Counted from the stretch's first letter, positions 170-14,521 are shown. The stretch is 24,000 nucleotides of DNA from Erythrobacter sp. SD-21 (GCF_000181515.1 NZ_ABCG01000004.1:1-24000), one strand, 5' to 3'. The notes: generated by a model not told the origin, from the sequence alone. Made by a program: numbers and translations.

Positions 170-286
170 CTTGGTGACCTTAGCGTCTGTGACCCACCCG
201 ATCCCATCTCGAACTCGGCCGTGAAACCGGACAGCGCCGATGGTACTAGTGCTCAAGCACTGGAAGAGTAGGTCGTCGCCAGGCAT
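170..286 (+). rRNA. rrf: 5S rRNA
   Basis: About 116 nt with typical 5S blocks (CCCACCCGATCCCATCTCGAACTCGGCCGTGAAAC, GGTACT, GAAGAGTAGGTCG). The terminal helix pairs 170-178 with 275-283. It sits just downstream of the 23S end. Ends are +/- 2 nt. Confidence 0.85.
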
Positions 287-508: not shown

Positions 509-585
<77 letters not shown>

Positions 586-704: not shown

Positions 705-1613
705 TTGGAGACGCCTAACGTGATCAAGGAAGCCCGCCTGCCCGTTCGTCATCGCTCATGGTTGTTCGCGCCGGGTGACAGCGAGAAAAAGATGACCAAA
801 GCGACCGAAGGGGACGCCGACATTGTTATCTTTGATCTCGAAGATGCCGTAGTCGAGGGTGAGAAACCCGCCGCACGCGCGCGGGTCTCTCATTTTCTTC
901 AGATGCAAAACGAAGCCGGACGTGCACGTCTATGGGTTCGTATCAACCCGCTCGATGGGCCACATACTGCGGACGATTTGGCAGCGGTATTGCCCATGCA
1001 GCCAGGCGGGATCATGCTGCCGAAATCACGCGGCCGTGAGGATGTGGAAAAGCTCGACAGGATGCTGACCGCGCTGGAACTCGAACATGGTCTTGAGCCA
1101 GGAGCCATGCCAGTTATCGCGCTGGTTACTGAAGTCGCCGCAGCCATGTTCACCACGGGCGATTATGCGGGAGCCCCGAGACTAGTTGCCATGACTTGGG
1201 GAGCGGAAGATCTTGCAGATTCCGTTGGGGCGCTGTCCAACTGCGGGCCAGACGGAGATTACCGTTTCACCTATGAACTCGCTCGCAGTTTGACATTGCT
1301 GGGTGCTGCGGCGGCTTCGGTACCGGCCATAGAGACAATAGACGCAGATTTCCGCAACTTACAGGGCCTGAAGGTGCGCGCAGAGCGAGTTCGGCAGGAT
1401 GGCTATCGCGGTATGTTGGCGATACACCCAGACCAGGTCCGGGTAATCAATGCAGCTTTCACGCCGACCGAGAAAGAGGTTCAAGAGGCGCGCGAGATTA
1501 TCGATCTGTTCGATGCTAAGCCCGGGGCCGGAACGATCGGGTATAAAGGTAAAATGCTTGATCGGCCTCACTTGAGCCGCGCACGGCAACTCCTCGCGCT
1601 GCGTTCTAGCTAG
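705..1613 (+). CDS. CoA-ester lyase / citrate lyase beta-subunit-like protein (HpcH/HpaI aldolase-CitE family)
   Basis: The N-terminal SWLFAPGD...ADIVIFDLEDAV and the later ...MTWGAEDL... fit the CitE/malyl-CoA lyase family pattern. The track start at 705 is TTG. An in-frame GTG at 720, preceded by GGAG (707-710), is the more likely start. Confidence 0.75.
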   Translation: METPNVIKEARLPVRHRSWLFAPGDSEKKMTKATEGDADIVIFDLEDAVVEGEKPAARARVSHFLQMQNEAGRARLWVRINPLDGPHTADDLAAVLPMQPGGIMLPKSRGREDVEKLDRMLTALELEHGLEPGAMPVIALVTEVAAAMFTTGDYAGAPRLVAMTWGAEDLADSVGALSNCGPDGDYRFTYELARSLTLLGAAAASVPAIETIDADFRNLQGLKVRAERVRQDGYRGMLAIHPDQVRVINAAFTPTEKEVQEAREIIDLFDAKPGAGTIGYKGKMLDRPHLSRARQLLALRSS

Positions 1614-2989
1614 GTCGAAACTACGATTTCGTCGTACACCGGGTCATACCGCAGTTCGATTCCCGCGCTGACCAGTTGTTTGAGAGTGACGAATTCCTCG
1701 CTGGCCTTTGCATTGCGAAGACCGGCAAATTCAGTCGGGTCAAATCGGTCCTCGAAGAGGTCAAGCACCTGACCAAGATGCACTGATATCGTGCGATCCC
1801 CATTAACCTGAAAGGGCACGGCACCGACTTCTCGCCCGTCCATCCTCACAGCCATACGTTTCTTGAAAGCGGGCTGCGTGATCTGATCGATATAGGCGAG
1901 AGAGGCTGATGTAGCTATTTGTTCGATTTCAGCCTTGGATGTTCGACCTCTTGTTGACGACGTGGGGGGGGCTGCACGATTGACCGCTGCTTCCGCAGTG
2001 GGTCGGTGTGGCGGATCATGCCGACCGAGGCGGGATTGCACCGAAGCTGTGCCGGCAAGGCCGGTTGCCGTGTTTCCGGGCGCCCTGATTGCTTGGCGAG
2101 CGATTGCGGCCCTTGCCGAACGTTCACCCTGGACCTTTGCAAGTATCGCGACGCGCTCGCTTTCGCTGAGAATGGTTTGCGCTGGCTCAAGCCGTTCCGT
2201 GGACGAGGTGGGGACTTTATCGACACCGCTATTTTGCGGGCGGGAAGCGAATGTGTCGGTCGCGCCGGCTATCTCCGGTATACCGTGCGAATTTTCTGAA
2301 TCGGAGAATGCTTGGCTAGCGTTCAAGTTATAGACGGGCCGTGTTTCCGAAGCGGGAATGGACGAGGAAGGCGCCCCATTTCTCTGCGCAGCCTCATCAC
2401 CGCCAAGATATCCAACATGGCTTATCGACGGACGCACTGAGTCGACTTGGGGAGGCGCCGAGGTGTTATAGTCACGTGAAACCTCGAGCGGGCGCGGAAG
2501 CTTTTCTGTCGTGCTGCTGGGAGTGACTGTACGGATTTCTTTGCCCAGCTCGCCCACTCTACGCGAGGGGGTACTTCTGACGAGAGGCATGTCGGAAACG
2601 TTAGCCGCGAATTGTGGACTTTCTACCACGGTTTTCAATTCTGCCCCCGCGTGGTCACCGGAAGCATTTCTGACCTCCCTCGACTGAGCGCCCGTCAACA
2701 TGGGTTGCGGAACTCTATCAACCGCAATCTGGTCACGGAAATCGCGTGCCGGCTGGCTGGCAAATTTCATTCCCAAATTGGGCGATAGCTGGGGACGAGG
2801 TTCAATTGCGACAGGCGATACCACTGTCGTACGGTCAATCTGACGAGCCGCACGAGGTCGATCTGGCAAGCGAACCCTCTCAGCAGCCGATTGCGGTTCA
2901 AATTTGATTGACGGCTGAGCGACGACGAGGCCCCAAACGGCTGCGCTTGAAAGAAGGGCTGTCGTGCGATGGACGCTCTGGCTTCTCAC
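1610..2989 (-). CDS. Hypothetical protein, last gene of the curli-type operon: N-terminal signal anchor, ~350-aa Pro/Ser/Arg-rich low-complexity region, ~100-aa C-terminal globular domain
   Basis: GTG start at 2989 preceded by GGGGAGGA. Hydrophobic N-terminus TTALLSSAAVWGLVVA. Long low-complexity middle. Ordered-looking C-terminus (AFKKRMAVRMDGREVGAVPFQVNGDRTISVHLGQVLDLFEDRFDP...IELRYDPVYDEIVVST). Same strand as the CsgH-like gene and 50 nt downstream of it. I recognise no family. Confidence 0.6.
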   Translation of the reverse strand: MRSQSVHRTTALLSSAAVWGLVVAQPSIKFEPQSAAERVRLPDRPRAARQIDRTTVVSPVAIEPRPQLSPNLGMKFASQPARDFRDQIAVDRVPQPMLTGAQSREVRNASGDHAGAELKTVVESPQFAANVSDMPLVRSTPSRRVGELGKEIRTVTPSSTTEKLPRPLEVSRDYNTSAPPQVDSVRPSISHVGYLGGDEAAQRNGAPSSSIPASETRPVYNLNASQAFSDSENSHGIPEIAGATDTFASRPQNSGVDKVPTSSTERLEPAQTILSESERVAILAKVQGERSARAAIARQAIRAPGNTATGLAGTASVQSRLGRHDPPHRPTAEAAVNRAAPPTSSTRGRTSKAEIEQIATSASLAYIDQITQPAFKKRMAVRMDGREVGAVPFQVNGDRTISVHLGQVLDLFEDRFDPTEFAGLRNAKASEEFVTLKQLVSAGIELRYDPVYDEIVVST

Positions 2990-3039
2990 AATTCCTCCCC
3001 CAAATCAACAAAACCAGACCTGTGTCCGTTAGTTAAAAC

Positions 3040-3393
3040 TTACTTGACCTCCAGCGACGCGCAATCTCCTGCCGTCAGTGTGTATGTAGATCCAGATTGT
3101 TCTGTGATCTCGGCAGTTGCGCACCATGTCCCGCTGTGCGACACCCGAAACTGCGAAATAGAGGTCTCGGTCTGGGCCGGAACTTTCGACTTCCCGCTAT
3201 GCCGGGAACGCGAGTCGCCGATCACTTCGATTTGGTAATCGACGACTTGATCGTGAGGCGACTTCGCAATCATCTCGATTTGGATTGTTCCATCGCCATC
3301 CTCGATCCGCATTGAGATTGCCTGTTCGCTTTCCACTACCTGTTCTCCGGTTGCCACGCTGCTGAGCAGAATGAGAGATGCGATAGTAATCAT
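3040..3393 (-). CDS. csgH: CsgC/CsgH-like small secreted protein (putative curli amyloid-inhibiting chaperone)
   Basis: 117 aa with signal peptide MITIASLILLSSVATG. The alternating beta-strand pattern DYQIEVIGDSRSRHSGKSKV...ISQFRVSH...WCATAEITEQSGSTYTL parallels E. coli CsgC CRVQILSLREGSSGQSQTK...LTKLSLNI...VKIVVTVSDGQSLHL. It lies in a curli locus of the alphaproteobacterial type, where CsgH is known. ATGA start/stop overlap with the upstream gene. Assigned by pattern and context, not by a search. Confidence 0.5.
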   Translation of the reverse strand: MITIASLILLSSVATGEQVVESEQAISMRIEDGDGTIQIEMIAKSPHDQVVDYQIEVIGDSRSRHSGKSKVPAQTETSISQFRVSHSGTWCATAEITEQSGSTYTLTAGDCASLEVK

Positions 3394-4148
3394 AGTCCGC
3401 CCCCGGCCTGGGTGGAGAATTGTTCCACGATCGCGTTGATGAGGGCCTGCGTTTCGGCCGATAGTTCGCTTGGATTCGGTTCCTCGGATGTCGGCTGCGC
3501 CGGGGCCAACGTCGAACTGCCGAGTGCGACAGATGCGATGGCCTGATCCTCATTTGAATTGAGCGCGCTGTTACCCCGGGCAAGCCTGGAAATAGCCGAT
3601 TCGAGCGTTGCTACCCGATCGCTATCGAGACCCTCGCCGAGCAGGCGTTCTTCCGGAGACAGGCTGGGTGCGGAGTTGCCGGCAAACTCTTCGGACCTGT
3701 CCTCCAATCTAACAAGGCACAATTCGATAATTGCCGGATTGCTGGGCTCCCGCTCGCAAATGTCCGTCCCATTTACGGCGCTGAATAGTATCGCGCGGTC
3801 ACGCTCCGTCAGTTGCGCCAGTGCGCGCCGCCCCCGTTCGCGGGTTAGTTGATCGGTTGTGCCGCCCATTTCGCGATCACGGGCAGACAATTGGACCATC
3901 TCCTGGTCGGGCCGACGGGGGTTCTCGAGCGTTTGGCCCTCCAGCGACTTGTCATCGCTAGCTGGAGGATTCGTCGCTTTCTCTGCGGTGGTTGGAAGAA
4001 ATGCCTTGAGCGAGGCACTCTCTGCACTATCGGAGGAAGTCTGGTTTACGTAAACGGAATCTTCGGCAGCCAGAACAGGAACGTTTCTAGGTTCCAAATC
4101 CGATTGGGTGGAAAGCAAAAGCAACGGAAGAAGAGTGAAAGTCGACAT
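3390..4148 (-). CDS. Hypothetical acidic secreted protein (252 aa), embedded in the curli operon
   Basis: The track ORF (3390-4262) overlaps the upstream gene. ATG at 4148 gives a signal-like N-terminus MSTFTLLPLLLLSTQS and lies 2 nt after the short-curlin stop (TGAACATG). Glu/Asp/Ser-rich, helical-looking C-terminal half, two Cys (DICEREPSNPAIIELC). Its stop overlaps the csgH-like start. No family recognised. Confidence 0.6.
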   Translation of the reverse strand: MSTFTLLPLLLLSTQSDLEPRNVPVLAAEDSVYVNQTSSDSAESASLKAFLPTTAEKATNPPASDDKSLEGQTLENPRRPDQEMVQLSARDREMGGTTDQLTRERGRRALAQLTERDRAILFSAVNGTDICEREPSNPAIIELCLVRLEDRSEEFAGNSAPSLSPEERLLGEGLDSDRVATLESAISRLARGNSALNSNEDQAIASVALGSSTLAPAQPTSEEPNPSELSAETQALINAIVEQFSTQAGGGL

Positions 4149-4150
4149 GT

Positions 4151-4909
4151 TCAATTCCCGCTTGGCGGTGGTGCCCCCGTATTCGTTTGCGTAATTTGGA
4201 GCGCTTGACCGCCGTCTTGCGTAATCTGAAGGTCGGATAGGCCGCTTCCGTTTTGGGTCCATTCCAGCCGGTTGCCTGCACCGAGTTGTGTCGCGGTCAT
4301 GATATTATTGTCGCCCGATTGTGCGAGGCGAGCCTGATTATCGCTGCCATCCTGCACGAGGTTAAGTCGATTGCCTGACCCGGACTGGCTGATTGCCGCT
4401 GCGGAATAGAGGTCGCCACTTTCAAATTGTGACAGCTCCGCAGAGTTTCCACTGCCTCTTTGAGCAAGCAGAAGAGCCGCTTGCCCGTTGCCGTCCTGTC
4501 CCGCGAAGACGGTGTTGCTATCTCCGTCCTGAGCGATTTCGGTATAATGGTTGCCATCATCCTGACGCAAATCCACTTGGTTGGCGTCCCCGTTCTGAAT
4601 GACGCGGGCATAGGCGCTAGTGCCCTGTTGATCGGCTTCGGCGGTGTTGCCCGATCCGATCTGGGAGATGAAAGCTCCACGATCCTCTTGGACCGGAACT
4701 GCGATTTCCTCGAAAGTGAAGCCGGCGTTGCCGTTCTCGCCGGAGTTCCCGTTATTGCCACCGCAGGGATTGCCTGTGCCGGCGCCATTCCCGTCTCCAC
4801 AAGGATCACCCGGGGGTATGTTCCCAGTGTCCGCGAGAACAGGCGCTGCGAATGACATCATCGCTGCAGCTAGAATTGCCGTAAGAGAGTTCGGTTTCAT
4901 CTGAGGCAC
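4151..4909 (-). CDS. Short curlin-repeat protein (CsgA/CsgB-like amyloid subunit, 252 aa)
   Basis: Signal peptide (SLTAILAAAMMSFAAPVLA), then a Gly/Asn-rich segment with two PCG motifs. About 15 half-repeats of the form phi-x-phi-x-Q-x-G-x-x-N-x follow (e.g. LNLVQDGSDNQ ARLAQSGDNNI MTATQLGAGNR LEWTQNGSG). GTG start at 4909 lies 7 nt after GGGAGAG; the alternative ATG is at 4900. Confidence 0.85.
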   Translation of the reverse strand: MPQMKPNSLTAILAAAMMSFAAPVLADTGNIPPGDPCGDGNGAGTGNPCGGNNGNSGENGNAGFTFEEIAVPVQEDRGAFISQIGSGNTAEADQQGTSAYARVIQNGDANQVDLRQDDGNHYTEIAQDGDSNTVFAGQDGNGQAALLLAQRGSGNSAELSQFESGDLYSAAAISQSGSGNRLNLVQDGSDNQARLAQSGDNNIMTATQLGAGNRLEWTQNGSGLSDLQITQDGGQALQITQTNTGAPPPSGN

Positions 4910-4979
4910 TTCAATTCTCTCCCTAGACTGCTCAGTTCGGACCTGTGGAATAGGCCGTCCTAGTCCGGCTTTTGCAACT

Positions 4980-5011
4980 GCGGGGGCGAAAATAAGGCTT
5001 TCCGCCCCCGC
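4980..5011 (-). other. GC-rich intercistronic hairpin between giant curlin 1 and the short curlin
   Basis: GCGGGGGCG(4980-4988) and CGCCCCCGC(5003-5011) form a 9-bp perfect stem with a 14-nt loop. Neither strand has a convincing U-tract. Confidence 0.45.
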
Positions 5012-5038
5012 GTCTTATATCAGACTCGGTGTACCTGA

Positions 5039-6883
5039 TCAGTTGCCCTGGGTCACCATAGCCGAGTTTCCAGTACCGGTTTGCGTGACAGTCGACATGT
5101 GACCATCGCCAGTCTGATTGACAGTCGCGGTATTGAACTCGCCATTCTGCGTGATCATCGACTGAAGTTCCGAACCGTTCTGACTGCTTGTTGCGGTGTT
5201 ATCAGCCCAGTTCTGGACGATTTCCGAGGTGTTCAGCAGACCGCCATTCTGGGTAATGGTGGCGATGCTGTTGTTCTGCGGAGATCCGCCGGCATCGTCA
5301 CCGTTCTGGGTTATGCGAGCGGTGTTTTGATCCGCACCCGCCAACTGGTGGATGGTAGCTGTTTCACCGCGGGCGTTGCCGATCTGAGTGATGAACGCCT
5401 GACCGCTCGCACCTTCCTGATTGATGGTCGCATCGTTGTTGCCTTCCGAACCCTGAAGGATGGTGGCATCGTTATCCGACGATCCGAGCGTCTGGTTTAC
5501 CCGGGCAAAGTTCCCGAAGCCGCCCTGATCGATATCGGATTCGTTACCCGTACCAAACTGGTCGACATCGATTTCGCTGTTCTGACCGTCCTGACGTGCG
5601 CGTGAGGTTTCGAACGAACCTCCTTGGTCGACGTTGGCCAGCTGACCACGATTGAGCTGGGTCAGGTCCGACGTGTTGTCGCTGCCGGTCTGGGTTACAT
5701 TGGTCGTCAGGGAATTGTCAGGGTTGTTTACGGGAGCGCCGCCGAGATCGGCCTGAACGATGGTCGAATCGTGCCCGTCGCCAGTCTGGTTGACCGTTGC
5801 GGCGAAGGTATTCGAACCGTCATTGTTGAACGTTTGCGTGATGGTCGAAGTGCTCACGCCGTTCTGCGTCACGACCGCGTCCATGTTGGTCGCTTCATCA
5901 CCCAAGATGGTCTGATTGACAGTCGAAGTCGCGCCGCCTGCCTGACTGACGCTGGCGAAGGCATCGCTGGCATCGCTGCCGGAAATCGACTGGTTTACAT
6001 CGGAATTGTTTCCGTTGCCGTTCTGCATCACTTCGGCGGCCAGCAAGCTCGAACCATCCTGATCGACATCCGACAGGTTATCGTTGCCGAGCTGCGTGAC
6101 CAGCGCCGACTCCTCCGAACCGTTCTGGTCGACGTAGGACTCGTTGCCGTTGCCGGTCTGGTCCACGATCGCGGTCAGAAGCGAGGGATCGACAGTGCTC
6201 TGCTGACTAACAGTCGAAACGTTATCGTCGCCAGTCTGATCGACCGAGGCAAGGCTGCGATTGGCGTTGCCGGGGTTACCATTGGTCATCTGCGTGGTTG
6301 ACGATGAGTTGCGGTTACCAATCTGCGTCGTGTTCGCGGTCGAATAGGTTGCCGGATCCTGAGTGATCGACGACATGTTGTCGTCGCCCGACTGCACTAC
6401 GCCGGCCGCTGCATCGCCATCCGTGACACGCAGGCTGTTGCCCGCCTGCACCACGGAAGAATCATTGCCTGCGCCATCCTGAAGCACCGTCGCAGTAAGG
6501 AAGCGTCCATCCTGCGAAACGTCCGAAATGTTGTCACCGTTCTGGTCGACGCGAGCGAGATTGTTGCGTCCGCCCACTTGCGTAACAGTGGATTCGGCGC
6601 TGTCGCCTGCCTGATCGACGAACACTTCGTTGGGCGTGTTTTCAGTGCCGGTGCCGCTCTGGTTCACGGTCGATTGTCCGTTGGTACCCGCCTGATCAAC
6701 GGTAGCTTCGTTGTAGACACCGGTCTGCAGTACATCGGAATCGTTGCTCGAACCGGTCTGCGTGACGTCGGCCGACAGATTGTGGCCGGTCTGATCAATA
6801 TCGCTATTGTTGCTCTGCGCGAATGCGGGAGCGGCGATGCCAAGGGCAATGATCGATGCACTGGTGAGAATAGTCTTTTTCAT
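5039..6883 (-). CDS. Giant curlin-repeat protein, paralogue 1 (614 aa)
   Basis: Start chosen at MKKTILTSASIIALGIAAPAFA|QS, by conservation of the signal peptide across the four paralogues (the track start at 6925 is a GTG inside a hairpin). The whole mature protein is ~11-aa half-repeats S-x-[VI]-x-Q-x-G-x-x-N-x. No Lys or Cys in the mature part by my reading. No Shine-Dalgarno is visible upstream (AAATTAACCAGATCATG). Confidence 0.85.
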   Translation of the reverse strand: MKKTILTSASIIALGIAAPAFAQSNNSDIDQTGHNLSADVTQTGSSNDSDVLQTGVYNEATVDQAGTNGQSTVNQSGTGTENTPNEVFVDQAGDSAESTVTQVGGRNNLARVDQNGDNISDVSQDGRFLTATVLQDGAGNDSSVVQAGNSLRVTDGDAAAGVVQSGDDNMSSITQDPATYSTANTTQIGNRNSSSTTQMTNGNPGNANRSLASVDQTGDDNVSTVSQQSTVDPSLLTAIVDQTGNGNESYVDQNGSEESALVTQLGNDNLSDVDQDGSSLLAAEVMQNGNGNNSDVNQSISGSDASDAFASVSQAGGATSTVNQTILGDEATNMDAVVTQNGVSTSTITQTFNNDGSNTFAATVNQTGDGHDSTIVQADLGGAPVNNPDNSLTTNVTQTGSDNTSDLTQLNRGQLANVDQGGSFETSRARQDGQNSEIDVDQFGTGNESDIDQGGFGNFARVNQTLGSSDNDATILQGSEGNNDATINQEGASGQAFITQIGNARGETATIHQLAGADQNTARITQNGDDAGGSPQNNSIATITQNGGLLNTSEIVQNWADNTATSSQNGSELQSMITQNGEFNTATVNQTGDGHMSTVTQTGTGNSAMVTQGN

Positions 6884-6915
6884 GATCTGGTTAATTTCGA
6901 AAATGGGAAGGAATA

Positions 6916-6943
6916 CCGGGCGCACCTCGATTGGCGCGCCCGG
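6916..6943 (-). terminator. Hairpin plus U-rich tail after giant curlin 2 (candidate partial intrinsic terminator)
   Basis: CCGGGCGC(6916-6923) pairs with GCGCCCGG(6936-6943). On the - strand it is followed by UAUUCCUUCCCAUUUUCG. Confidence 0.45.
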
Positions 6944-6952
6944 CTCGGAAGC

Positions 6953-8608
6953 TTACATTCCCTGCGTGACGCTGGCCGTGTTGCCGTTGCCGTTCTGATT
7001 CACGTATGAGGTGTTGGCATCGCTGTTCTGCGTAACGGTCGCGCTGTTACCCGAACCATCCTGTGCGATATCCGACAGGTTGTCGTTGCCCAGTTGGTTG
7101 ACGTCTGCAGTGTTCCCGAAACCGTCGACCGTACCGTTCTGCGAGAGCCGGCTGGTGTTGCCCGAACCAGACTGCAGGACATCAGCGGTGCTGTTAAAGC
7201 CTGACTGAGTCAGTTCGGACACGTTGAGCGCACCCGACTGGCTGACCGTCGCGGAATTTTCGCTACGGTCACCGCTGACATCGCCAAGCTGGGTGATGAG
7301 CGAGGTCGAACCATCCGAGCCAGCCAACTGCTCGACAAAGGCGCTGTCGTTGCGGCCGGTCTGGTCGATGGTCGAGGTCGCACCGATGCCATCCTGAGTG
7401 ACGTTGGCAGAGTTATTCAGGCCAAGCTGAAGCGAGTTCGAGGTGTTCGCATCGCCCGACTGCAGGACAGTGAGATCGTTGCCCGCGGTGCCCTGGAAAG
7501 CATCGACGATATTGCTGTCGCCGGTCTGATCGATATCGGCAAACGCGCTCTTGTTTTCCTGGACGAGGGCCGAGGTGTTGTCGTCGCCAGTCTGGTTGAC
7601 GTCGGCCACGAGACCGCCATCCGCGTTACCGATGACACCAAAGCCTTCATCGCGCTGCGTGACATTCGATAGATTGCCGCTGCCGTTCTGGTTGACGGTC
7701 GCCATGAAGTTGCTCGAACCATCGTTGTCGAACGTCTGCGTGATGTTGGAAGTGCTCGCACCGTCCTGCGTCACGATGGCGTCCTGCGTCACCGATTCAT
7801 CGCCATTTGCGCGCTGGGTAATGTTCGAGGTCGCGCCGTTAAATTGCGTGACATCGGCATTCAGGTCACTCGTCAGGTTGCCCGTCAGCGACTGGGTGAT
7901 GTTCGACAGCGAACCGCCCGACTGATTGACGCGGGCTACCGCTGTCGGATTCTGACCGCTGGCGTCACTGGCGGTCTGTATGATGTTCGAGGTCGAAGCA
8001 TCCTGTGTGACATAGGCGTTCAGGTTCTTACCCGCGTTCGATCCGGTCTGGATGATGTCCGAGCTCGCATCGCCCGTCTGGTTGACCTGGGCGCGAAGAC
8101 CACCGGTGTAGCCAGGGCCGTCCGAGTTCTGGTCGATATTCGACGAGTTGTTGTCACCGGTCTGCGTGACGCGCGCGGTCTGGTTGAAACCGCCGCCGGC
8201 AGCGATGGTCTGGGTGATGCCGGACATGTTGCTGTTGCCGATCTGGCTGACAGTTGCGTCGGGATCGAAATCGGCAACGCCGGTCGTGCCGTCCTGGCCG
8301 GGTGCGGTGTCCGGATCGTCTTGGTCGATTGTGGAAACGTTGCTGTCACCGTCCTGCGTCACATCGGCAAGGCCGAAGAAAGAGTCTTGGTCGATCGTTG
8401 AACTGTTGCCGGCTCCCGACTGAACATTGCTGGCCGAGTTGCTGTCGCCAGTCTGATCGATATCCGAAGTATTGGAACCGCTCTGTGAAACAGTTGCGCC
8501 GTTGGCATTGCCGGTCTGGTCGACGTCGCTGGTATTGCTTTGCGCCGCTGCCGGAGCTGCAATGCTGAGGGCCAGTACGCTGGCGCCTGTCATGATAGTT
8601 TTTTTCAT
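6953..8608 (-). CDS. Giant curlin-repeat protein, paralogue 2 (551 aa)
   Basis: MKKTIMTGASVLALSIAAPAAA|QS signal peptide, RBS AAGGTGAG, curlin half-repeats throughout, C-terminus NGNGNTASVTQGM. The central block ITQTFDNDGSSNFMATVNQNGSGN is collinear with paralogue 1. Confidence 0.88.
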   Translation of the reverse strand: MKKTIMTGASVLALSIAAPAAAQSNTSDVDQTGNANGATVSQSGSNTSDIDQTGDSNSASNVQSGAGNSSTIDQDSFFGLADVTQDGDSNVSTIDQDDPDTAPGQDGTTGVADFDPDATVSQIGNSNMSGITQTIAAGGGFNQTARVTQTGDNNSSNIDQNSDGPGYTGGLRAQVNQTGDASSDIIQTGSNAGKNLNAYVTQDASTSNIIQTASDASGQNPTAVARVNQSGGSLSNITQSLTGNLTSDLNADVTQFNGATSNITQRANGDESVTQDAIVTQDGASTSNITQTFDNDGSSNFMATVNQNGSGNLSNVTQRDEGFGVIGNADGGLVADVNQTGDDNTSALVQENKSAFADIDQTGDSNIVDAFQGTAGNDLTVLQSGDANTSNSLQLGLNNSANVTQDGIGATSTIDQTGRNDSAFVEQLAGSDGSTSLITQLGDVSGDRSENSATVSQSGALNVSELTQSGFNSTADVLQSGSGNTSRLSQNGTVDGFGNTADVNQLGNDNLSDIAQDGSGNSATVTQNSDANTSYVNQNGNGNTASVTQGM

Positions 8609-8718
8609 CTCACCTTCTTCACGTTTAAGTGCTTGTTATTATTTGCGACTTAATTGGTACTGCGGGGTTTTCCGTGCCGCTTGCCTGTCACACTCTGTTG
8701 CGTTCGCAGTGCGAGAAG

Positions 8719-8749
8719 GCGGGAGCGTGCCGCGCTGGCACACCCCCGC
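8719..8749 (-). other. Interrupted GC-rich hairpin after giant curlin 3
   Basis: GCGGG(8719-8723)/CCCGC(8745-8749) enclose GTGCC(8727-8731)/GGCAC(8737-8741). An AT-rich stretch follows at 8609-8660, upstream of paralogue 2. Confidence 0.35.
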
Positions 8750-8756
8750 TCTTTCC

Positions 8757-10412
8757 TCAGTTCTGCGCTACGGTTGCGCTGTTGCCTGCACCGTCTTGAG
8801 CAATGGTGGAGACGTTCGAGCTTCCACCCTGCGTAACCAGCGCACTATTCAAGTCGCCCGACTGGGTGATCGTGCTCCGGTTCAGATCGCCGGAATCGAT
8901 CAGCGTGGCCAAGTTGTCGTGGCCGTCCTGCATAATCAGCGAGTAACCGTTGGTGCCGGTCTGCAAGCTGGAAGCGCTGTTGCCCGACACGGCCGGATCG
9001 CCCAGCGTGTTGGTCTGGCCGATCGTGCTGGCGTTGCCCGAACCTTCCTGCGTGATGCTGGCCTCCATCTGGCGCGCGGGACCACCGTTTGCGGCGCTAT
9101 CCGAATACTGGTTGATGGTGGCGGTGTTCGAGGCGCCGACCTGATCGACAGCGGCGCTCGAAAAGTTCGAGTAGCCGGTCTGGCTGACATTGCTGACCAG
9201 ATTGTCACCGACCTGGCTGACGAAGGCCGAGCCGAAGTTGGCCGACTGCGTTACGCTCGAGTAGTTGTCGAAACCATCCTGCGTGACACCGACCATCGCT
9301 ACGTCGCCGTCACCGTCAAACTCGCCGGCTGCGTTATCGAGGCCCGGCTGATCGACGATGCTTGTGTTACGCTCGCCGTACTGTTCGACAGCAGCCACGT
9401 TCTGCGAACCGAACTGCGTAATGGTCGAATTGTTGTCCGTACCGTCTTGGAGAAGGTCCAGCTGCTGCAAACTGGTCAGCCGGTTTGGCGAACCCTGAGT
9501 CGCGTTGCTGACATTGGTGGTGCCATCCTGCGAAATGTTTGCAGTGGCTGAGGCACCCTGCTGCGTCAGGTTGGACGAGTTGCCCGTGCCGCTCTGCGAA
9601 ACGAAGCCGTCGTTGTACTGGCCCGTCTGGTCCGTCGTAGCCATGTTGGACGTACCGTTCTGGATGATCGATGCGTCCTGATCGGCGGGGTTTGCCGAAC
9701 TCAGCTGGTTGATCGTGCCGGAATTGCCGGTCCCCGTCTGGCCGATTGTAGCGAAACTGCGCAGTTCGGCGCCGTTGCCGCTGACCTGCTCTTGACGGAT
9801 GACGCCATCGTTGTCGTCGCCGGTCTGGCTGATAGCGCCGCTCGAATACTTGGCCGGATTCTGATCGATGTTTGCCAGATTTCCGTTGCCGTTCTGGACA
9901 ATACCGCCTTCGGCCGCATTGTTGGTGTTACCGATGAAGTTGCCCGTGCCGCGCTGGTCGACATAAGCCTCGTTGAGATCACCGGTCTGGTAGACTTCGG
10001 CCTGCGACGCGCGGCCGGCCTGCGTCACGGAGGCATAGCTGTCCCCGTTCTGGTCCACATATGTGGTCAGTCGGTTGGCATCGCCGCCGTCTCCGTTTTC
10101 CTGCAGAACGTCGGCTTCGGCACTGTCGCCGGCCTGGATCACGGTTGCCCGATTGGTTTTCGAAAGCTCCTGGCCGTTGCCGGTCTGGACAATGTCGACA
10201 TCGCCGTTGCTGCCGGACTGATCGACGACTGCGTCGTTGAACTGCGAGCTCTGGTCGATGTCGGACGTGTTGTCCGAACCGGTCTGCGTCACATCGGCGC
10301 TGAGATCGTTGCCGTTCTGATCGATATCGGACTGATTGTTGCTTTGTGCAGCTGCCGGAGCCGCGATGCCGAGCGCGAGTGCGCTGGCGCTGGTGAGTAT
10401 AATCTTTTTCAT
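8757..10412 (-). CDS. Giant curlin-repeat protein, paralogue 3 (551 aa)
   Basis: Start at MKKIILTSASALALGIAAPAAA|QS, preceded by AGGAGG (the track start at 10448 is upstream of the RBS). Curlin half-repeats throughout; C-terminus DGAGNSATVAQN. Confidence 0.87.
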   Translation of the reverse strand: MKKIILTSASALALGIAAPAAAQSNNQSDIDQNGNDLSADVTQTGSDNTSDIDQSSQFNDAVVDQSGSNGDVDIVQTGNGQELSKTNRATVIQAGDSAEADVLQENGDGGDANRLTTYVDQNGDSYASVTQAGRASQAEVYQTGDLNEAYVDQRGTGNFIGNTNNAAEGGIVQNGNGNLANIDQNPAKYSSGAISQTGDDNDGVIRQEQVSGNGAELRSFATIGQTGTGNSGTINQLSSANPADQDASIIQNGTSNMATTDQTGQYNDGFVSQSGTGNSSNLTQQGASATANISQDGTTNVSNATQGSPNRLTSLQQLDLLQDGTDNNSTITQFGSQNVAAVEQYGERNTSIVDQPGLDNAAGEFDGDGDVAMVGVTQDGFDNYSSVTQSANFGSAFVSQVGDNLVSNVSQTGYSNFSSAAVDQVGASNTATINQYSDSAANGGPARQMEASITQEGSGNASTIGQTNTLGDPAVSGNSASSLQTGTNGYSLIMQDGHDNLATLIDSGDLNRSTITQSGDLNSALVTQGGSSNVSTIAQDGAGNSATVAQN

Positions 10413-10434
10413 TTGGTCCTCCTGTTGAACGTAG

Positions 10435-10463
10435 CGAGGCGGAAGCACAGGGCCCCCGCCTCG
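10435..10463 (-). other. GC-rich intercistronic hairpin between giant curlins 4 and 3
   Basis: CGAGGCGG(10435-10442) and CCGCCTCG(10456-10463) form an 8-bp perfect stem with a 13-nt loop. No U-tract. Confidence 0.4.
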
Positions 10464-10469
10464 ATCTGG

Positions 10470-11831
10470 TTAATTGCCCTGCGTGACAGTGGCCGTGTTG
10501 CCGGTGCCGTTCTGCGCAACCGACGAGTAATCGGATGTGCCCGTCTGAGTGACGGTCGCTGCGTTACCCGTTCCGTTTTGATCAATATAAGACTCGTTGT
10601 TGGAACCGGATTGATCGACCAGCGCGGAGTTTCCGTCGCCGTTTTGCATGATCGAGCTGTATTCGCTCGACCCGTTCTGCAGCACATTTGCGAACTGGTT
10701 GGCACCGTCCTGCAGGATGTTGCTTACATCCGCGCTGCCAAGCTGTTCGACGATTGCCGAATTGTCCGAACCGGCGCCGCCGATCTGCTGGATATCGCTG
10801 ATGTTGCTGCCGCCGGACTGCGTAACGAGAGCTGTGGAATCGCGGCGCTGATCGATGGCGCTCGTGTTGCCGTCACCGGACTGAATGACGGTAGCCGAGT
10901 TATCTCGGCCGACATCGGTTGGGCTGGGCGGAGCAAGGCCTTCGCCCTGAGTGACGAGACTGCCGTTGCCATTCCCGGACTGCGTTATCGAAGCAAAGTT
11001 CGAAGTGTCCTGGATCAGGTTGCTGTCATTGCCATCACCGGTCTGGCTGACGGTGGCATCGTTGAACTGGTCCTGGAACAGGTTGCTGTCGTTATCGCTA
11101 CCCGACTGCAAAACCGTGCCGGTGTTGCCTTGGCGGTACTGGTCGACATCGGAGAAGTTGTTCGATGCCGACTGCGTAACGATGAGCGAGTTGGCCTGAC
11201 GGGACTGATCTACGTCGGAAATGTTGTTCGTTCCCGACTGGATCACGTCCACGCGGGAGGCAGGATCGAATTCCACGCCATTCACGCCGGTGTAATCCTG
11301 GTTGATGGTGGAGCGGTGGCCAGTACCCTCCTGCGAGTTGTAGGCCGCTGCGCCGGTGATCCCGCCGGCAGAGTCGTCCTGGACCATGGTCGACTGGTTG
11401 TCGCTTCCGTTCTGGATGACCCGCGCGTTATTGGCATAACCCGAAGGTACGGTGCTGTCGGCATCCGTATCGGCAGGATCGTAGCTCGAAACCTGAGTGA
11501 TGTTGGCAATGTTCGACTGTCCACCGGGATTATCGTTGTTTTGTTCGACACGGGCCCGGCTGTTATCGCCGTCCTGATCGATAATCGATTCGTTCGATGG
11601 TGTGTTGAACGGTGTGGAGCCGACCGGGTTTTCGGTCTGTGTTACTTCGACGAAGTTATCGTCGCCGTCCTGATCGACATCGGAGAGGTTCTCGTTGCCC
11701 TGCTGGCTGACGGTGGCCGAGTTGTCCTCGCCGTTCTGCCAGATGTCGGAGGTTTGAACCTGTTGGGCAGACGCCGGAGCAGCAGCGATAAGCGCAACGA
11801 TCGAAGCGCCTGTAAGGATCGTATTCTTCAT
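10470..11831 (-). CDS. Giant curlin-repeat protein, paralogue 4 (453 aa)
   Basis: Start at MKNTILTGASIVALIAAAPASA|QQ (ATG 11831, AAGGTGA upstream). About 33 half-repeats by hand count. C-terminus NGTGNTATVTQGN. No Lys or Cys seen in the mature part. Confidence 0.87.
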   Translation of the reverse strand: MKNTILTGASIVALIAAAPASAQQVQTSDIWQNGEDNSATVSQQGNENLSDVDQDGDDNFVEVTQTENPVGSTPFNTPSNESIIDQDGDNSRARVEQNNDNPGGQSNIANITQVSSYDPADTDADSTVPSGYANNARVIQNGSDNQSTMVQDDSAGGITGAAAYNSQEGTGHRSTINQDYTGVNGVEFDPASRVDVIQSGTNNISDVDQSRQANSLIVTQSASNNFSDVDQYRQGNTGTVLQSGSDNDSNLFQDQFNDATVSQTGDGNDSNLIQDTSNFASITQSGNGNGSLVTQGEGLAPPSPTDVGRDNSATVIQSGDGNTSAIDQRRDSTALVTQSGGSNISDIQQIGGAGSDNSAIVEQLGSADVSNILQDGANQFANVLQNGSSEYSSIMQNGDGNSALVDQSGSNNESYIDQNGTGNAATVTQTGTSDYSSVAQNGTGNTATVTQGN

Positions 11832-11869
11832 GACTTGCATCACCTTTTGATCAAGGCGATACTCAAGGA

Positions 11870-11962
11870 TCACGACGGCGCAGAAGACGCCGAGTGGCTT
11901 AGGTATCGCAGCCTACATTTCTGCACGCATCGGAGTTGCCGCTCCTTTGCGTGCGTTTTTTT
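11870..11962 (+). ncRNA. Candidate small RNA (~90 nt), antisense to the csgG/curlin-4 intergenic region
   Basis: The + strand has TTGCAT(11835-11840), a 17-nt spacer and GATACT(11858-11863). Downstream is a strong + oriented terminator. No + strand CDS is present. Prediction only. Confidence 0.25.
11923..11962 (+). terminator. Strong intrinsic terminator oriented on the + strand, inside a - strand operon
   Basis: GCACGCA(11923-11929) pairs with TGCGTGC(11948-11954), with an inner GGAG/CTCC stem. It is followed by G and then TTTTTTT(11956-11962). On the - strand the hairpin is followed by AGAAAUG, with no U-tract. Confidence 0.6.
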
Positions 11963-11999
11963 GCGGCCCAGTAGCGTGTTTCACGCTTCTTAATCTGGT

Positions 12000-12026
12000 C
12001 CCGCCGTCCGGAGGCCGACCGGCGGG
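12000..12026 (-). other. GC-rich hairpin 14 nt downstream of the csgG stop
   Basis: CCCGCCG(12000-12006) pairs with CGGCGGG(12020-12026). No U-tract on the - strand. Confidence 0.35.
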
Positions 12027-12039
12027 AATTCGTTGTGCG

Positions 12040-13014
12040 TCAGGAGCCGGTGCGGCTCCCGCGGCCTTCGTCGCGTTCGACTACCTCGAGGGCGGTCAGC
12101 GATCCGGCGCGGCGAACGGCGTTCTGTACGTCGCGCGCGTCGTAGACGCCGTCCCGCTCGGCGCGGTAGGTCGACATGAGCGGCTGGGCCGCCTGCATGT
12201 CGGCAAACCGCCACAGGTCGAGTTCGACGCCTTCGAGGACCAGGCCATAAACGGCCTTTTCGATCGCCTGCTGGAGGGCTATCTGGTCGGGTTCGTTGGT
12301 GGTGATCCCCCATTCGGCTTCGAGCAATTCCTTGAATCCGACGAATTTGTACGTGCTCAGTCCGACTGCCTTGCTGGCAATGGTCTTCGAGGCCGTCACA
12401 TTGGTGAGAACCTCGCCGGTGCGGACGGAGACCGCCCGCAGGTACACCGTTACAGTGTCCTGACGGTATTCGGTCCGGCCGCCAATGCCGAGGAAGGCTG
12501 CGCCGGCGCCGCCGGTCACGGTGTTGGTGTCGTAGCCGACGATCCCGCCTTCGAGCAGGACCCCGGCGAACATGAGCGCGGGCAGTGCGCTGGCGTCGAC
12601 TTCTTCCTCGCCGAGGTAGCGCTTGCGCATCTCGGTGATGATCTGGCGTTCCTTCAGGAGGTTATCGAGGCGTTCGCGTTCCACCACGGTGAACCAGTCG
12701 CGCGAGCCGGCATCCTGGAGGGCCTTCACGAGGATCGAACTTGCCCCTTGCGTGACGGCGCGTGACAGCGTTTGCCCGGCCTCGGTGGGCTTGAACTGCC
12801 CGGTCTGGTCGGTGAAACCGTAGACGGCAATCGCCACCTGGCGTTCCGGCGCGGGCAACTGCTGCAGCAGGCTTTGTGTCTGGGTCTGCTTGGGGAAATA
12901 GGCGAGGCTGGTTTCTTCCGGCAGCAGGTCGCGGCCGTCGTCACCGAGCGTGGTGCACCCACCCAGTAGCGAGGCGGCTGCCGCGAGGCAGCAGGTCAGT
13001 CCGATGCGGGCCAT
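12040..13014 (-). CDS. csgG: Curli production assembly/transport outer-membrane lipoprotein CsgG
   Basis: 324 aa. Lipobox LLGGC|TT. The block AIAVYGFTDQTGQFKP...TLSRAVTQGASSILVKAL is characteristic of the CsgG family. Its start shares 1 nt with the csgF stop (TGATG). Confidence 0.92.
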   Translation of the reverse strand: MARIGLTCCLAAAASLLGGCTTLGDDGRDLLPEETSLAYFPKQTQTQSLLQQLPAPERQVAIAVYGFTDQTGQFKPTEAGQTLSRAVTQGASSILVKALQDAGSRDWFTVVERERLDNLLKERQIITEMRKRYLGEEEVDASALPALMFAGVLLEGGIVGYDTNTVTGGAGAAFLGIGGRTEYRQDTVTVYLRAVSVRTGEVLTNVTASKTIASKAVGLSTYKFVGFKELLEAEWGITTNEPDQIALQQAIEKAVYGLVLEGVELDLWRFADMQAAQPLMSTYRAERDGVYDARDVQNAVRRAGSLTALEVVERDEGRGSRTGS

Positions 13015-13439
13015 CAGTTCACCTCGATGAATAGCGGAACCACGATGCGGGTTTCTTCGCCCGTATCGTCATTGGTGATGATGAGCGTCACGGAATCGAG
13101 CGATCGGAAGAACGAGATCGTCTGGCCGCCAAAGCTGATGACCCCGCTTTCCTGCGGATCGTCACCGAAGATGGCGTCGACGATTTGCGACGACAGCGCC
13201 GAAAGCAGGCGGGATTGCAATTGGCGGGCGAAAATATCGGCTTGCGAATTGGTGCTGGCCGCATTCGGGTCCTTGGTCTTGTTCTGCGCATTCGCAATGC
13301 CGAGGATGTGGTTGGAATTGAACGGATTGCCGCCGAATGTCGGGCTTATCGGTTCGTGGACGATGTCCTGTGCATTGGCCGGGACCGCAACACATGCCGC
13401 ACCCGCGCCAATAATAGCCCAAAGGCCTCTCGAAGTCAT
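13014..13439 (-). CDS. csgF: Curli assembly component CsgF
   Basis: 141 aa with a signal peptide ending PANA|QD. The mature N-terminus IVHEPISPTFGGNPFNSNHILGIANAQNK matches the conserved CsgF N-terminal motif that inserts into the CsgG channel. Strong SD GAGGGGGG. Immediately upstream of csgG. Confidence 0.88.
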   Translation of the reverse strand: MTSRGLWAIIGAGAACVAVPANAQDIVHEPISPTFGGNPFNSNHILGIANAQNKTKDPNAASTNSQADIFARQLQSRLLSALSSQIVDAIFGDDPQESGVISFGGQTISFFRSLDSVTLIITNDDTGEETRIVVPLFIEVN

Positions 13440-13619
13440 GTACCCCCCTCAAAAACTCTCATGCCGCACAGATCATGCGGCGAACGAACGCTCTGAAAAA
13501 ACAAGGCGAATCGTTATGTGCCGGTTAACATGTATGAATCGAGGGGGGCTGTGAAGGGGGGTGCCGGGAGAACGTCCCGATATGGAACGCCTTTTTTCTT
13601 ATCCCTTTCTTTCAATAGG

Positions 13620-13648
13620 TTATGCTGGGGATATCGCTGCCCTTGCAA
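13620..13648 (-). promoter_or_regulatory. Possible sigma70-type promoter for csgFG
   Basis: On the - strand: TTGCAA(13648-13643), a 17-nt spacer, GCATAA(13625-13620). This would give a ~170-nt leader. Hexamer match only. Confidence 0.2.
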
Positions 13649-13670
13649 CGCGAAACTGGGATTTCTTCGG

Positions 13671-13695
13671 AAATTTCGAAACGTTTCGCGAAATA
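13671..13695. promoter_or_regulatory. Palindromic operator-like site upstream of csgF (LacI-family-like AAACGTTT core)
   Basis: CGAAACGTTTCG is a perfect 12-bp palindrome at 13677-13688. It is embedded in AAATTTCGAAACGTTTCGCGAAATA. The adjacent GAAATTTC (13670-13677) is also palindromic. Confidence 0.4.
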
Positions 13696-13783
13696 ATTCT
13701 TGTCCGTTCTGGACGAAATAGTTGCATACGTTGAAACCAGAGCGCTGCTCGGAAGGCGAAAATGACCCCTTCGGCTTGTTGGA

Positions 13784-14521
13784 TCACGCTCGATCGAGCT
13801 TGGCCACTTCGGCGAGCACCCGCTCGGCCCATTCGGGGCGGCAGATGAGCAGGTCGGGCATGTAGGTATCCGCTTGGTTGTAGGTGAGCGGGCTGCCGTC
13901 GATCCGGCTTGCGTGCATCCCATGGGCGAGCGCCACCGCGGCAGGGGCGGCGCTGTCCCACTCATATTGCCCCCCCGTGTGGAGATAGATTTCCGCCTCG
14001 CCGCGCACCACGGCCATGGCCTTCGCTCCGGCCGATCCCATCGGCACGAGTTCCGCGCCGATGGCTTCGGCGACGGCAACGGCTTCCTTGGCCGGACGCG
14101 TACGGCTGACGACCATGCGCGGGGCGTCTGCGGCTGCGGGCACGTCGATAGGCGCATCGGTGCGCAGGACCATGTCGAGGCCGGGCAGGGCGACCGCACC
14201 CGTTTCCGGCTTGCTGTCGACGCAAAGCGCTACGTGGACCGCCCAGTCCGAACGGGCCTCGCCATATTCGCGCGTGCCGTCGACCGGGTCGACGATCCAC
14301 ACGCGGCTCTTGGCGAGGCGTTCTGCCGTGTCCTTGCTTTCTTCCGACAGTAGGCCGTCTTCGGGGCGCTGCTGGGTGAGCGCGTGGCAGAGGAACTGGT
14401 TGGCCGTCTCGTCGCCGGCCTTGCCCAGGGATTTGCCTTCGAACATGCCGCTCTCCCGAACCTGGATCAAGATCTTGCCTGCGACTTCGGCAAGATGGGC
14501 GGCGAGTTCGGCGTCGGTCAT
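13784..14521 (-). CDS. cysQ: 3'(2'),5'-bisphosphate nucleotidase CysQ / inositol monophosphatase family protein
   Basis: 245 aa starting at MTDAELAAHL (ATG 14521). Family motifs LLSEES, VWIVDPVDGTREY and GSAGAK are present. The upstream 224 aa of the track ORF overlap gluP out of frame and are rejected. Confidence 0.8.
   Translation of the reverse strand: MTDAELAAHLAEVAGKILIQVRESGMFEGKSLGKAGDETANQFLCHALTQQRPEDGLLSEESKDTAERLAKSRVWIVDPVDGTREYGEARSDWAVHVALCVDSKPETGAVALPGLDMVLRTDAPIDVPAAADAPRMVVSRTRPAKEAVAVAEAIGAELVPMGSAGAKAMAVVRGEAEIYLHTGGQYEWDSAAPAAVALAHGMHASRIDGSPLTYNQADTYMPDLLICRPEWAERVLAEVAKLDRA

Follow-up and report, generated by a model that had tools for sequence, protein, structure and literature searches.

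How might an alphaproteobacterium export curli-type amyloid subunits from a locus that carries no gene for CsgE? The question is raised by ten genes of Erythrobacter sp. SD-21 at positions 1610-13439 of the window, by which we mean the whole 24,000-nucleotide stretch of DNA analysed here. All ten lie on the minus strand, in the order csgF, csgG, four giant curlins, a short curlin, P8, csgH and P10 (Table 1). On sequence grounds the locus is a genuine curli-type (type VIII secretion) array of the alphaproteobacterial CsgH type, expanded and unidirectional. The first-pass annotation had described it in this way, and both the Pfam and NCBIfam matches and the single-strand layout bear it out: the curlin-repeat proteins all match PF07012, CsgF matches PF10614 and CsgG matches PF03783. 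The novelty claimed for the architecture was overstated, however. Alphaproteobacterial curli loci that lack csgC, csgD and csgE and carry csgH were described in 2012 by Dueholm et al. (PMC3521004), and multi-copy and giant curlins were surveyed in 2023 by Sleutel et al. (PMC10192328), with an Erythrobacter longus giant since expressed (PMC13579223). What is new is a near-obligate partner gene, P8, which had been listed in the annotation and not singled out.

Table 1. Positions of the array genes and the upstream region in the window
Feature	Position	Strand	Length	Assignment and matches
Upstream of csgF	13440..13783	-	344 nt	presumed promoter/operator
csgF	13014..13439	-	141 aa	surface-exposed curli assembly factor; PF10614, 105.8 bits
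csgG	12040..13014	-	324 aa	outer-membrane lipoprotein secretion channel; PF03783, 201 bits
Giant curlin 1	10470..11873	-	467-aa ORF	likely start 11831 (MKNTIL); PF07012 E 4.8e-48, 9 stretches
Giant curlin 2	8757..10448	-	563-aa ORF	likely start 10412 (MKKIIL); PF07012 E 8e-49, 11 stretches
Giant curlin 3	6953..8608	-	551 aa	PF07012 E 5e-40, 12 stretches
Giant curlin 4	5039..6925	-	628-aa ORF	likely start 6883 (MKKTIL); PF07012 E 8.3e-48, 15 stretches
Short curlin	4151..4909	-	252 aa	PF07012 E 3.3e-14
P8	3390..4148	-	252 aa	conserved accessory protein, no name; no Pfam/NCBIfam family
csgH	3040..3393	-	117 aa	putative CsgC-like periplasmic anti-amyloid chaperone; NF041112 35.5 bits (cutoff 35)
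P10	1610..2989	-	459 aa	no Pfam family

Layout and regulation of the array

At the head of the array the csgF stop and the csgG start share one base (TGATG), and the two genes are translationally coupled; the csgF ATG is preceded by a GAGGGGGG ribosome-binding site. CsgF resembles residues 28-87 of E. coli CsgF in both BLASTP and tblastn, its N-terminal PTFGGNPFN agrees with the corresponding E. coli segment, and its FGGNP motif together with residues 38-86 aligns with E. coli CsgF, in keeping with an N-terminal CsgG-binding motif. CsgG carries an LLGGC lipobox and is 39% identical to E. coli CsgG (tblastn). The Caulobacter holdfast anchor HfaA/HfaB/HfaD also belongs to the Alphaproteobacteria and has both a CsgG-like lipoprotein (HfaB) and a curlin-like protein. 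That identity is ruled out for the present locus, since its CsgG scores 179 bits against the NCBIfam CsgG model (NF011731) and 33 bits against the HfaB model (cutoff 300), and since it encodes CsgF and true Curlin_rpt proteins.

Upstream of csgF lies an imperfect palindrome, GTTCCATATCGGGAC, at 13574-13588, and of 20 loci examined, 12 have the motif GTnCCnnATCGGGAC at a distance of 147-160 nt ahead of the csgF start, while two others have it at 130 and 234 nt; a search of 13440-13783 against Rfam gave no match. The gaps that separate csgG and the curlin genes, about 60-210 nt when measured from likely starts, could accommodate promoters of their own. Third-position GC is 0.55-0.61 in the short curlin, P8, CsgH and P10, whereas it is 0.69-0.82 in csgFG and the giant curlins.

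Is CsgE truly missing? A Pfam search of all 88 six-frame open reading frames of at least 75 aa in the window matched 15 families in all, among them neither CsgE (PF10627) nor GerE, and tblastn with E. coli CsgE and CsgD found no match in the window, so that the reported absence of both genes within it stands. CsgE, CsgD and divergent operons, the marks of an E. coli-type regulon, are absent here: the genes lie on a single strand, and the only regulator in the window belongs to the LacI family. The expectation that neither gene is associated with such loci elsewhere held for CsgE, which gave no tblastn match in 98 related loci; it held less strictly for the regulator, as LuxR-type genes adjoin the module sporadically, in only three relatives (L015, L040 and L038). 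Transcription would depend on a regulator encoded elsewhere.

The curlins and CsgH

All five curlins bear N-terminal Sec signals and an 11/22-residue motif periodicity, with PF07012 E values from 3e-14 to 8e-49. The four giants are divergent paralogues of roughly 20-27 repeat units each; the first has an 11-residue motif periodicity and a pI of about 4, the second has matches of 43-51% identity in three related loci (L003, L004, L012) and the third has matches of 56-65% in four (L002, L008, L011, L013). Common to the giants are an N-terminal AQSNxSDIDQxG and a C-terminal GNxAxVxQG, and because these ends are shared the giants could stack into mixed fibres. Among the curlins of the locus the short one is the best conserved (46-74% identity over 13 orthologues, with invariant Q, G and N columns). 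It has a Gly/Asn-rich N-terminal segment, which contains two Cys, and a degenerate last repeat, and is the likeliest candidate for a CsgB-like nucleator or minor subunit.

The 117-aa protein was one of three genes reported as unassigned. It is assigned here to CsgH, a beta-sandwich chaperone, which leaves two genes, P8 and P10, without a recognised family. The NCBIfam model NF041112 is matched by 12 of 12 csgH orthologues (best E 2.9e-15), comparison with E. coli CsgC by hhalign gives E 5e-4 at a probability of 31%, and csgH adjoins curlin genes in a locus without csgC, csgD or csgE, as is typical of the alphaproteobacterial CsgH type. According to Taylor et al. 2016 (PMC4838910), CsgH functions as a CsgC-like inhibitor of curli nucleation.

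Could such an array be something other than a fibre-forming system? One alternative is that the giants are monomeric beta-solenoid adhesins or matrix proteins that leave through CsgG, and that the short curlin is the only fibre former. Their great length and strong acidity (pI about 4), the irregular spacers between their repeat blocks and a copy number that ranges from 2 to 4 among relatives would suit that role, but all four show strong Curlin_rpt matches over their entire length and keep the conserved repeat ends. Moreover, a 43-repeat E. longus homologue fitted with the E. coli Sec/N22 sequence formed Congo-red-binding material in E. coli via CsgEFG in 2026 (PMC13579223), and curlins of up to 62 repeats were predicted to be solenoid fibre subunits (PMC10192328); we regard the adhesin reading as very unlikely. 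Less probable still, to the point of being barely credible, is the view that the locus is a remnant, silent or in decay, for which one might cite the lack of a linked regulator and, in one relative (L012), an in-frame stop within the short curlin. None of the ten open reading frames is broken, ribosome-binding sites and coupling are in place, and the same gene set recurs in many genomes and metagenomes, with identities of 30-87%.

P8 and its link to the short curlin

The true start of P8 is at 4148 and not at 4262, where the longest open reading frame begins, which places its ATG 2 nt past the short curlin stop; at its other end the P8 stop is overlapped by the csgH start (ATGA). Dozens of loci keep short curlin, P8 and csgH together as a tightly packed triad, and in 13 genome loci the synteny is csgF-csgG, two to four giant curlins and then short curlin-P8-csgH. 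A less biased test of synteny was made with 80 metagenome loci anchored on the short curlin: 58 of 59 had P8 after the short curlin, 39 of 46 had CsgH and 14 of 30 had P10. One locus (L086) has the short curlin without P8. A five-gene Sphingomonas plasmid locus, csgF-csgG-curlin-curlin-P8, keeps P8 (hhalign probability 98.9%) and is without CsgH and P10.

The protein itself begins with a signal peptide, is acidic and disordered over its N-terminal half, and ends in a helical domain of about 130 aa, in which two Cys are invariant and the motifs ETRSxEF, LSPEERLLGE, DQAIASVAL and ETQALINAIV are found. It has no match in Pfam or NCBIfam; a word search returned 57 relatives and a profile search 429 representative clusters, of similar lengths. 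Its AlphaFold2 (AF2) model is all-helical and of low confidence (pLDDT 61), and no structural neighbour was found for this model. Homology to CsgE is ruled out by an hhalign probability of 0.1%, the lack of a PDB sequence match to CsgE and the all-helical model.

What, then, is P8 doing in a curli locus? The case for a role rests on location, linkage and coupling, and we consider it probable that the locus works as a curli system without CsgE and that P8 is an accessory dedicated to it. A decidedly unlikely alternative is that P8 and P10 are syntenic passengers of unrelated function, with CsgF, CsgG, CsgH and the curlins sufficing for export. Neither protein has a recognisable family or a structural homologue of known function, their third-position GC differs from that of csgFG, and P10, which about half of the loci lack, varies in orientation. 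Against this stand the near-invariable position of P8 after the short curlin, its start/stop coupling on both sides and its retention as the sole non-Csg gene of the minimal plasmid-borne locus; P10, for its part, stays beside csgH though the flanks vary (HpcH here, MatE/MscS elsewhere). A second alternative, rather unlikely in our estimation, is that P8, instead of acting as a periplasmic gatekeeper, is exported to the cell surface like CsgF and there serves to anchor or nucleate the short curlin. This would fit the observations that P8 pairs and couples translationally with the short curlin and not with csgG, that it is acidic and half-disordered like other secreted curli components, and that a conserved cysteine pair occurs in both proteins, but an intact CsgF is already there. 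As a dedicated accessory, P8 would act as a periplasmic, disulfide-bonded factor together with the short curlin and CsgG, and the likeliest of its possible roles, though itself less likely than not, is to substitute, without homology, for the absent CsgE in subunit targeting, gating or anti-aggregation.

P10 and a model for export without CsgE

P10 starts with a GTG at 2989, behind a GGGGGAGGA ribosome-binding site and a 50-nt spacer that separates it from csgH. It had been reported as an anchored disordered protein. The hydrophobic N-terminal segment (signal peptide or anchor; conserved with P0002) and the basic Pro/Ala/Ser-rich disordered linker of about 330 aa agree with this, but the description had overlooked a C-terminal domain, about 85 aa long, which contains an invariant YDPVYDE motif and is folded in the AF2 model (pLDDT 86.6 overall, 90-96 over residues 20-100). 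This domain defines a family of 81 proteins, none of which has a Pfam family. In a Foldseek search of the PDB its top nine matches are all usher N-terminal domains (FimD, Caf1A), at weak scores (E 0.016-0.22, TM 0.40-0.47) and with no match to them at the sequence level; hhalign against CsgE gives a probability of 0.1%. In chaperone-usher pili the usher N-terminal domain receives complexes of Ig-like chaperone and subunit, and P10 lies beside csgH; unlike an usher, it has no barrel and is a soluble or tethered protein.

The accessory genes had been described as co-oriented, which is true of P8 and csgH. Among 17 loci taken from genomes and other assemblies, 14 have P10 beside csgH; P10 is co-oriented only here and in two close relatives and convergent in every other locus that bears it, including all 14 metagenome loci. 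Because it is mostly convergent and about half of the loci do without it, P10 is optional and not a fixed member of the operon. It would be a dispensable, lineage-restricted accessory whose folded domain may dock chaperone-subunit complexes.

In the mechanism that we propose, the curlins would cross the periplasm unfolded, kept from amyloid formation by CsgH, and would be exported by CsgG and CsgF for extracellular polymerisation into beta-solenoid fibres. A bolder version, in which P8 is a non-homologous periplasmic adaptor or gatekeeper that escorts curlins to CsgG, while the usher-N-like domain of P10 and CsgH add a hand-over akin to that of chaperone-usher pili inside type VIII secretion, we hold to be rather unlikely.

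How does this arrangement differ from known systems? With csgBAC and csgDEFG of E. coli and Salmonella it shares CsgG, the CsgF N-terminal motif, curlins with Sec signals and a chaperone of the CsgC family, but it occupies one strand in place of two divergent operons, lacks CsgE and CsgD, has CsgH for CsgC, encodes five subunits of 252-628 aa against two of 151 aa, and adds P8 and P10. The CsgH-type loci of 2012 likewise lack csgC, csgD and csgE, carry csgH beside the curlins as well as csgF and csgG, and encode long multi-repeat curlins; the available text of that report describes neither a P8 gene inserted ahead of csgH, behind the last curlin, nor the optional P10 past csgH, and the single array of four giant paralogues and one short curlin is a further difference (PMC3521004). 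More than two CsgA-like genes and repeat numbers far above five are shared with genomes that hold up to 30 CsgA copies and curlins of 4-62 repeats (PMC10192328) and with the giants of Erythrobacter and Blastomonas that have already served as building blocks for fibres (PMC13579223), studies that, in their available text, covered subunits and not native accessory genes. The heterologous work added E. coli N22 and CsgE (PMC13579223), so that it does not account for native targeting without CsgE.

The locus represents the curli pathway in its Erythrobacteraceae/Sphingomonadales form and is largely ordinary. Were P8 absent from CsgE-less curli loci outside Sphingomonadales, it would not be a general replacement for CsgE; here, P8 is a candidate for whatever replaces it.

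Content and composition of the curli array

Between 13439 and 1610 the minus strand carries ten consecutive, co-oriented genes, whose products include the components of a type VIII secretion system (table below). The first-pass annotation had described an expanded curli locus here, and the feature is real, with correct limits and a sound core interpretation, including the curlin-repeat identity of the five subunits, all of which match PF07012 in a Pfam search. The CsgG of the window is also clearly assigned, scoring 179 bits on the CsgG model and 33 bits on that of HfaB, its paralogue in the holdfast system. A 5S rRNA and a tRNA-Met(CAT) near its start show that the window opens on the last part of an rRNA operon; the 85-aa ORF at 240-497 runs into the 5S rRNA gene and is a spurious call.

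Features of the window and of related loci carrying a linked LuxR-family regulator
Feature	Position	Strand	Assignment
5S rRNA	170-284		Rfam, 88.8 bits
tRNA-Met(CAT)	509-585		
P10	1610-2989	-	459 aa; C-terminal domain family without named members
csgH	3040-3393	-	117 aa; NCBIfam CsgH model
P8	3390-4148	-	252 aa; no Pfam, NCBIfam or PDB relative
Short curlin	4151-4909	-	252 aa; PF07012, E 3e-14
Giant curlins 1-4	5039-11873	-	467, 563, 551, 628 aa; PF07012, E 5e-40 to 8e-49
csgG	12040-13014	-	PF03783, 201 bits
csgF	13014-13439	-	PF10614, 105.8 bits
Inositol-monophosphatase/CysQ-like gene	13784-14518		
Carbohydrate-utilisation cluster, unrelated	14614-23958	-	Two MFS transporters, GH3 glycosidase, LacI-family regulator, TonB-dependent receptor
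LuxR-family regulator, L015	2710-3405		GerE alone
LuxR-family regulator, L038	1821-2918		PAS+GerE
LuxR-family regulator, L040	7484-8248		Receiver+GerE, domain layout like that of CsgD

The giant curlins consist of approximately 62-67% N/Q/S/T/D/G, have a pI near 4 and show the motif periodicity of 11/22 residues expected for curlin repeats, with roughly 20-27 repeat units each as estimated by length. The first and last repeats are closely similar among the four. Among the curlins the short one is the most conserved; its leader is rich in Gly and Asn, and its last repeat is degenerate. Its counterpart in Erythrobacter sp. NFXS35 (L012, 8970-9710) contains an in-frame stop inside the aligned region, which is either a pseudogene mutation or a sequencing error. 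Plus-strand ORFs opposite the curlins (8472-9551, the 733-aa ORF at 9792-11993, and others) have no family matches and mirror the repeat composition; they were rejected as genes and appear to be a by-product of it.

Two groups of genes are tightly coupled, in arrangements that are conserved. At the csgF-csgG junction the stop and start codons share a single base (TGATG); the ATG of P8 at 4148 follows two bases after the short curlin stop and P8 in turn overlaps csgH by ATGA. P10 begins with GTG at 2989, preceded by the ribosome-binding site GGGGGAGGA, after a 50-nt spacer behind csgH. A simple promoter and terminator scan returned fewer sites than in shuffled controls and carries no information on operon structure. 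The GC content of third codon positions is 0.55-0.61 on the 1610-4909 side (short curlin, P8, csgH and P10, with the HpcH-type lyase gene next to them), 0.69-0.82 in csgF, csgG and the giant curlins (5039-13439), and 0.81-0.85 in genes beyond 13.8 kb; the conserved triad of short curlin, P8 and csgH could differ in origin or in expression level.

Three genes had initially been left without a family. One of these, the 117-aa gene, is csgH: its product barely passes the NCBIfam CsgH model (35.5 bits, cutoff 35), and all 12 of the 12 collected orthologues match that model, with a best E of 2.9e-15. A profile of the orthologues gives a weak alignment to E. coli CsgC (E 5e-4) and retrieved nothing useful from PDB sequences; the calmodulin matches of a single-sequence search are spurious. 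The other two, P8 and P10, are indeed uncharacterised. The reported absence of CsgE and of a CsgD/LuxR-type regulator from every frame of the window is likewise confirmed, because neither a CsgE nor a GerE/LuxR domain occurs among all 88 six-frame ORFs of at least 75 aa scanned against Pfam (only 15 families matched), and because neither the window nor any of 98 related loci gave a tblastn match to authentic E. coli CsgE or CsgD.

P8 and its linkage to curli loci

Of the components that are not Csg proteins, P8 is the one that occurs most constantly in these loci, a statement based on genome synteny, on metagenome linkage and on retention in a minimal plasmid locus. In 13 genome loci, which were found via P8 itself and exclude L017 for the many frameshifts of its assembly, the order is csgF-csgG, then two to four giant curlins, then short curlin-P8-csgH. 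The less biased test of linkage is a metagenome scan anchored on the short-curlin alignment, and there P8 lies directly downstream of the short curlin in 58 of the 59 loci with sufficient sequence, followed next by CsgH in 39/46. Moreover, the minimal curli locus on Sphingomonas sp. NY01 plasmid p2 (NZ_CP101724.1, 74245-77879) consists of csgF, csgG, genes for two small curlins of 182 and 209 aa, and a gene that its record lists as hypothetical but that hhalign identifies as a P8 homologue (probability 98.9%); CsgH and P10 are absent, and a RES/Xre toxin-antitoxin pair comes directly after. The conserved downstream neighbours MatE, MscS, GroES/EL and DUF885 were set aside as housekeeping genes that reflect chromosomal synteny only.

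The P8 protein has a signal peptide and an N-terminal half that is variable, acidic and disordered; its C-terminal domain (~130 aa) is conserved, with two invariant cysteines and several invariant motifs. A profile search recovered a family of 429 representative clusters among 1.84 billion proteins, similar in length throughout and none of them named, and searches of Pfam, NCBIfam and PDB sequences found no relative. One homologue (P0018) has a precomputed Pfam entry, PF25934, which a renewed Pfam search did not reproduce and which was set aside. The AlphaFold (AF2) model is helical and of low confidence (pLDDT 61), and Foldseek with this model returned noise and no structural neighbour. Could P8 simply be a diverged CsgE? 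With an hhalign probability of 0.1% between the two, P8 is not CsgE.

P10, an optional accessory

P10 starts with a hydrophobic segment that its closest homologue shares, continues through ~330 residues that are rich in Pro, Ala and Ser and basic in character (pI 9.3), and has a C-terminal domain marked by an invariant YDPVYDE motif; none of the 81 members of this domain family has a name. The P10 product is 100% identical to a protein of Erythrobacter sp. SD-21, the strain from which the window derives. Gene callers shorten genes of this family inconsistently, and for SD-21 the public records give product lengths of 81 aa (ED21_23521) and 386 aa. A strong ribosome-binding site precedes the ORF of 459 aa, whose N-terminus is conserved in a homologue of 425 aa. 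The predicted domain has a confident fold (pLDDT 86.6 overall, 90-96 over residues 20-100), and its nine best PDB structural matches are pilus usher N-terminal domains (FimD, Caf1A), weak at E 0.016-0.22 and TM 0.40-0.47. At the sequence level this likeness finds no support, a PDB sequence profile search having given nothing useful, and the modeled domain is possibly usher-like.

P10 adjoins csgH in 14/17 loci from genomes and other assemblies and in 14/30 metagenome loci, and it lies on the opposite strand everywhere it occurs except in the window and two related loci (L001, L006). Loci without P10 have other genes in its place: glycine-cleavage genes, hydrolases or, in three cases, LuxR-type regulators. 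Because the adjacency to csgH persists while the outer flanks change, we take P10 to be a real but dispensable accessory. P10 proteins also carry short h-DQ-[IV] motifs, located in the window at 1880-1912 (ASLAYIDQITQP, residues 360-370) ahead of the domain and in most relatives (L004-L014) in C-terminal tails after it, as KVHMDQIS..ERG...DQV. These recall the xVDQxG strand that opens curlin repeats and might serve as a docking strand; curlin models gave no match to them.

Regulation, proposed mechanism and significance

The sole regulator in the window is the LacI-family gene of the sugar-utilisation cluster. In three relatives a LuxR-family regulator directly adjoins the short curlin-P8-csgH module, about where P10 stands in the window. 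Upstream of csgF lies an imperfect palindrome, GTTCCATATCGGGAC, at 13574-13588 (-); of 20 related loci, 12 have a variant of GTnCCnnATCGGGAC at a distance of 147-160 nt from csgF on its upstream side, and two others have one at 130 and 234 nt, and in many loci the GTnCCnnATCGGGAC-type site is followed by a conserved TTTACAC...GTTAATA block. Palindrome and block are a candidate operator and promoter, and the positional conservation of the palindrome suggests that a locus without a linked regulator would be controlled by a factor encoded elsewhere. No Rfam family is found upstream of csgF, and a riboswitch or other RNA there was rejected.

How would curlins be exported from such a locus? On the model established for E. 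coli curli (PMC4838910 for the chaperone, PMC10192328 for the fibres), Sec would carry the curlins into the periplasm, CsgH as a CsgC-family chaperone would keep them unpolymerised, and export via CsgG/CsgF would be followed by extracellular polymerisation to beta-solenoid fibres. With first and last repeats so alike, the four giants would be able to stack and so form mixed fibres. For a nucleator or minor subunit the short curlin is the strongest candidate, its leader and last repeat resembling those described for CsgB in PMC10192328. P8 would be an exported protein with a disulfide bond, and it hardly ever parts from the short curlin. We consider it probable that curli biogenesis requires P8 in some way; P8 is also our best candidate for the function of E. 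coli CsgE, in targeting, gating or anti-aggregation, although we consider this narrower role less likely than not.

The novelty of the locus had been overrated. Dueholm et al. (PMC3521004) describe Alphaproteobacteria without csgC, csgD and csgE, with csgH often adjoining curlin genes and curlins of up to 22 repeats, and state that the missing Csg functions must be taken over by other proteins; CsgH, at first proposed as the stand-in for CsgE, proved to be a CsgC-like nucleation inhibitor (PMC4838910). Sleutel et al. (PMC10192328) report curlins with 4-62 repeats, genomes with as many as 30 CsgA-like genes, and the presence of CsgH in 1,839 genomes. A 2026 study (PMC13579223) obtained Congo-red-binding material in E. 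coli from an Erythrobacter longus curlin of 43 repeats, only with added E. coli Sec and N22 signals and with E. coli CsgC/E/F/G; giant Erythrobacter and Blastomonas curlins already serve as materials, but only with grafted E. coli targeting signals. Given PMC3521004, PMC10192328 and PMC13579223, the expanded, unidirectional, CsgE/CsgD-less and CsgH-containing character, with many giant curlins on a single strand, is diversity already documented. What is new is P8, a near-obligate unnamed partner gene, together with the optional P10 and its possibly usher-like domain; no description of either was found in the literature searched, source databases list them as hypothetical, and a search on curli in sphingomonads returned nothing relevant.

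For engineering, native helpers might permit secretion of giant curlins without the E. coli signal graft. The CsgE-less alphaproteobacterial loci described in 2012 raised the question of what directs curli subunits to CsgG and gates their passage when CsgE is missing, and P8 is a concrete candidate for the CsgE replacement that is open to genetic testing.
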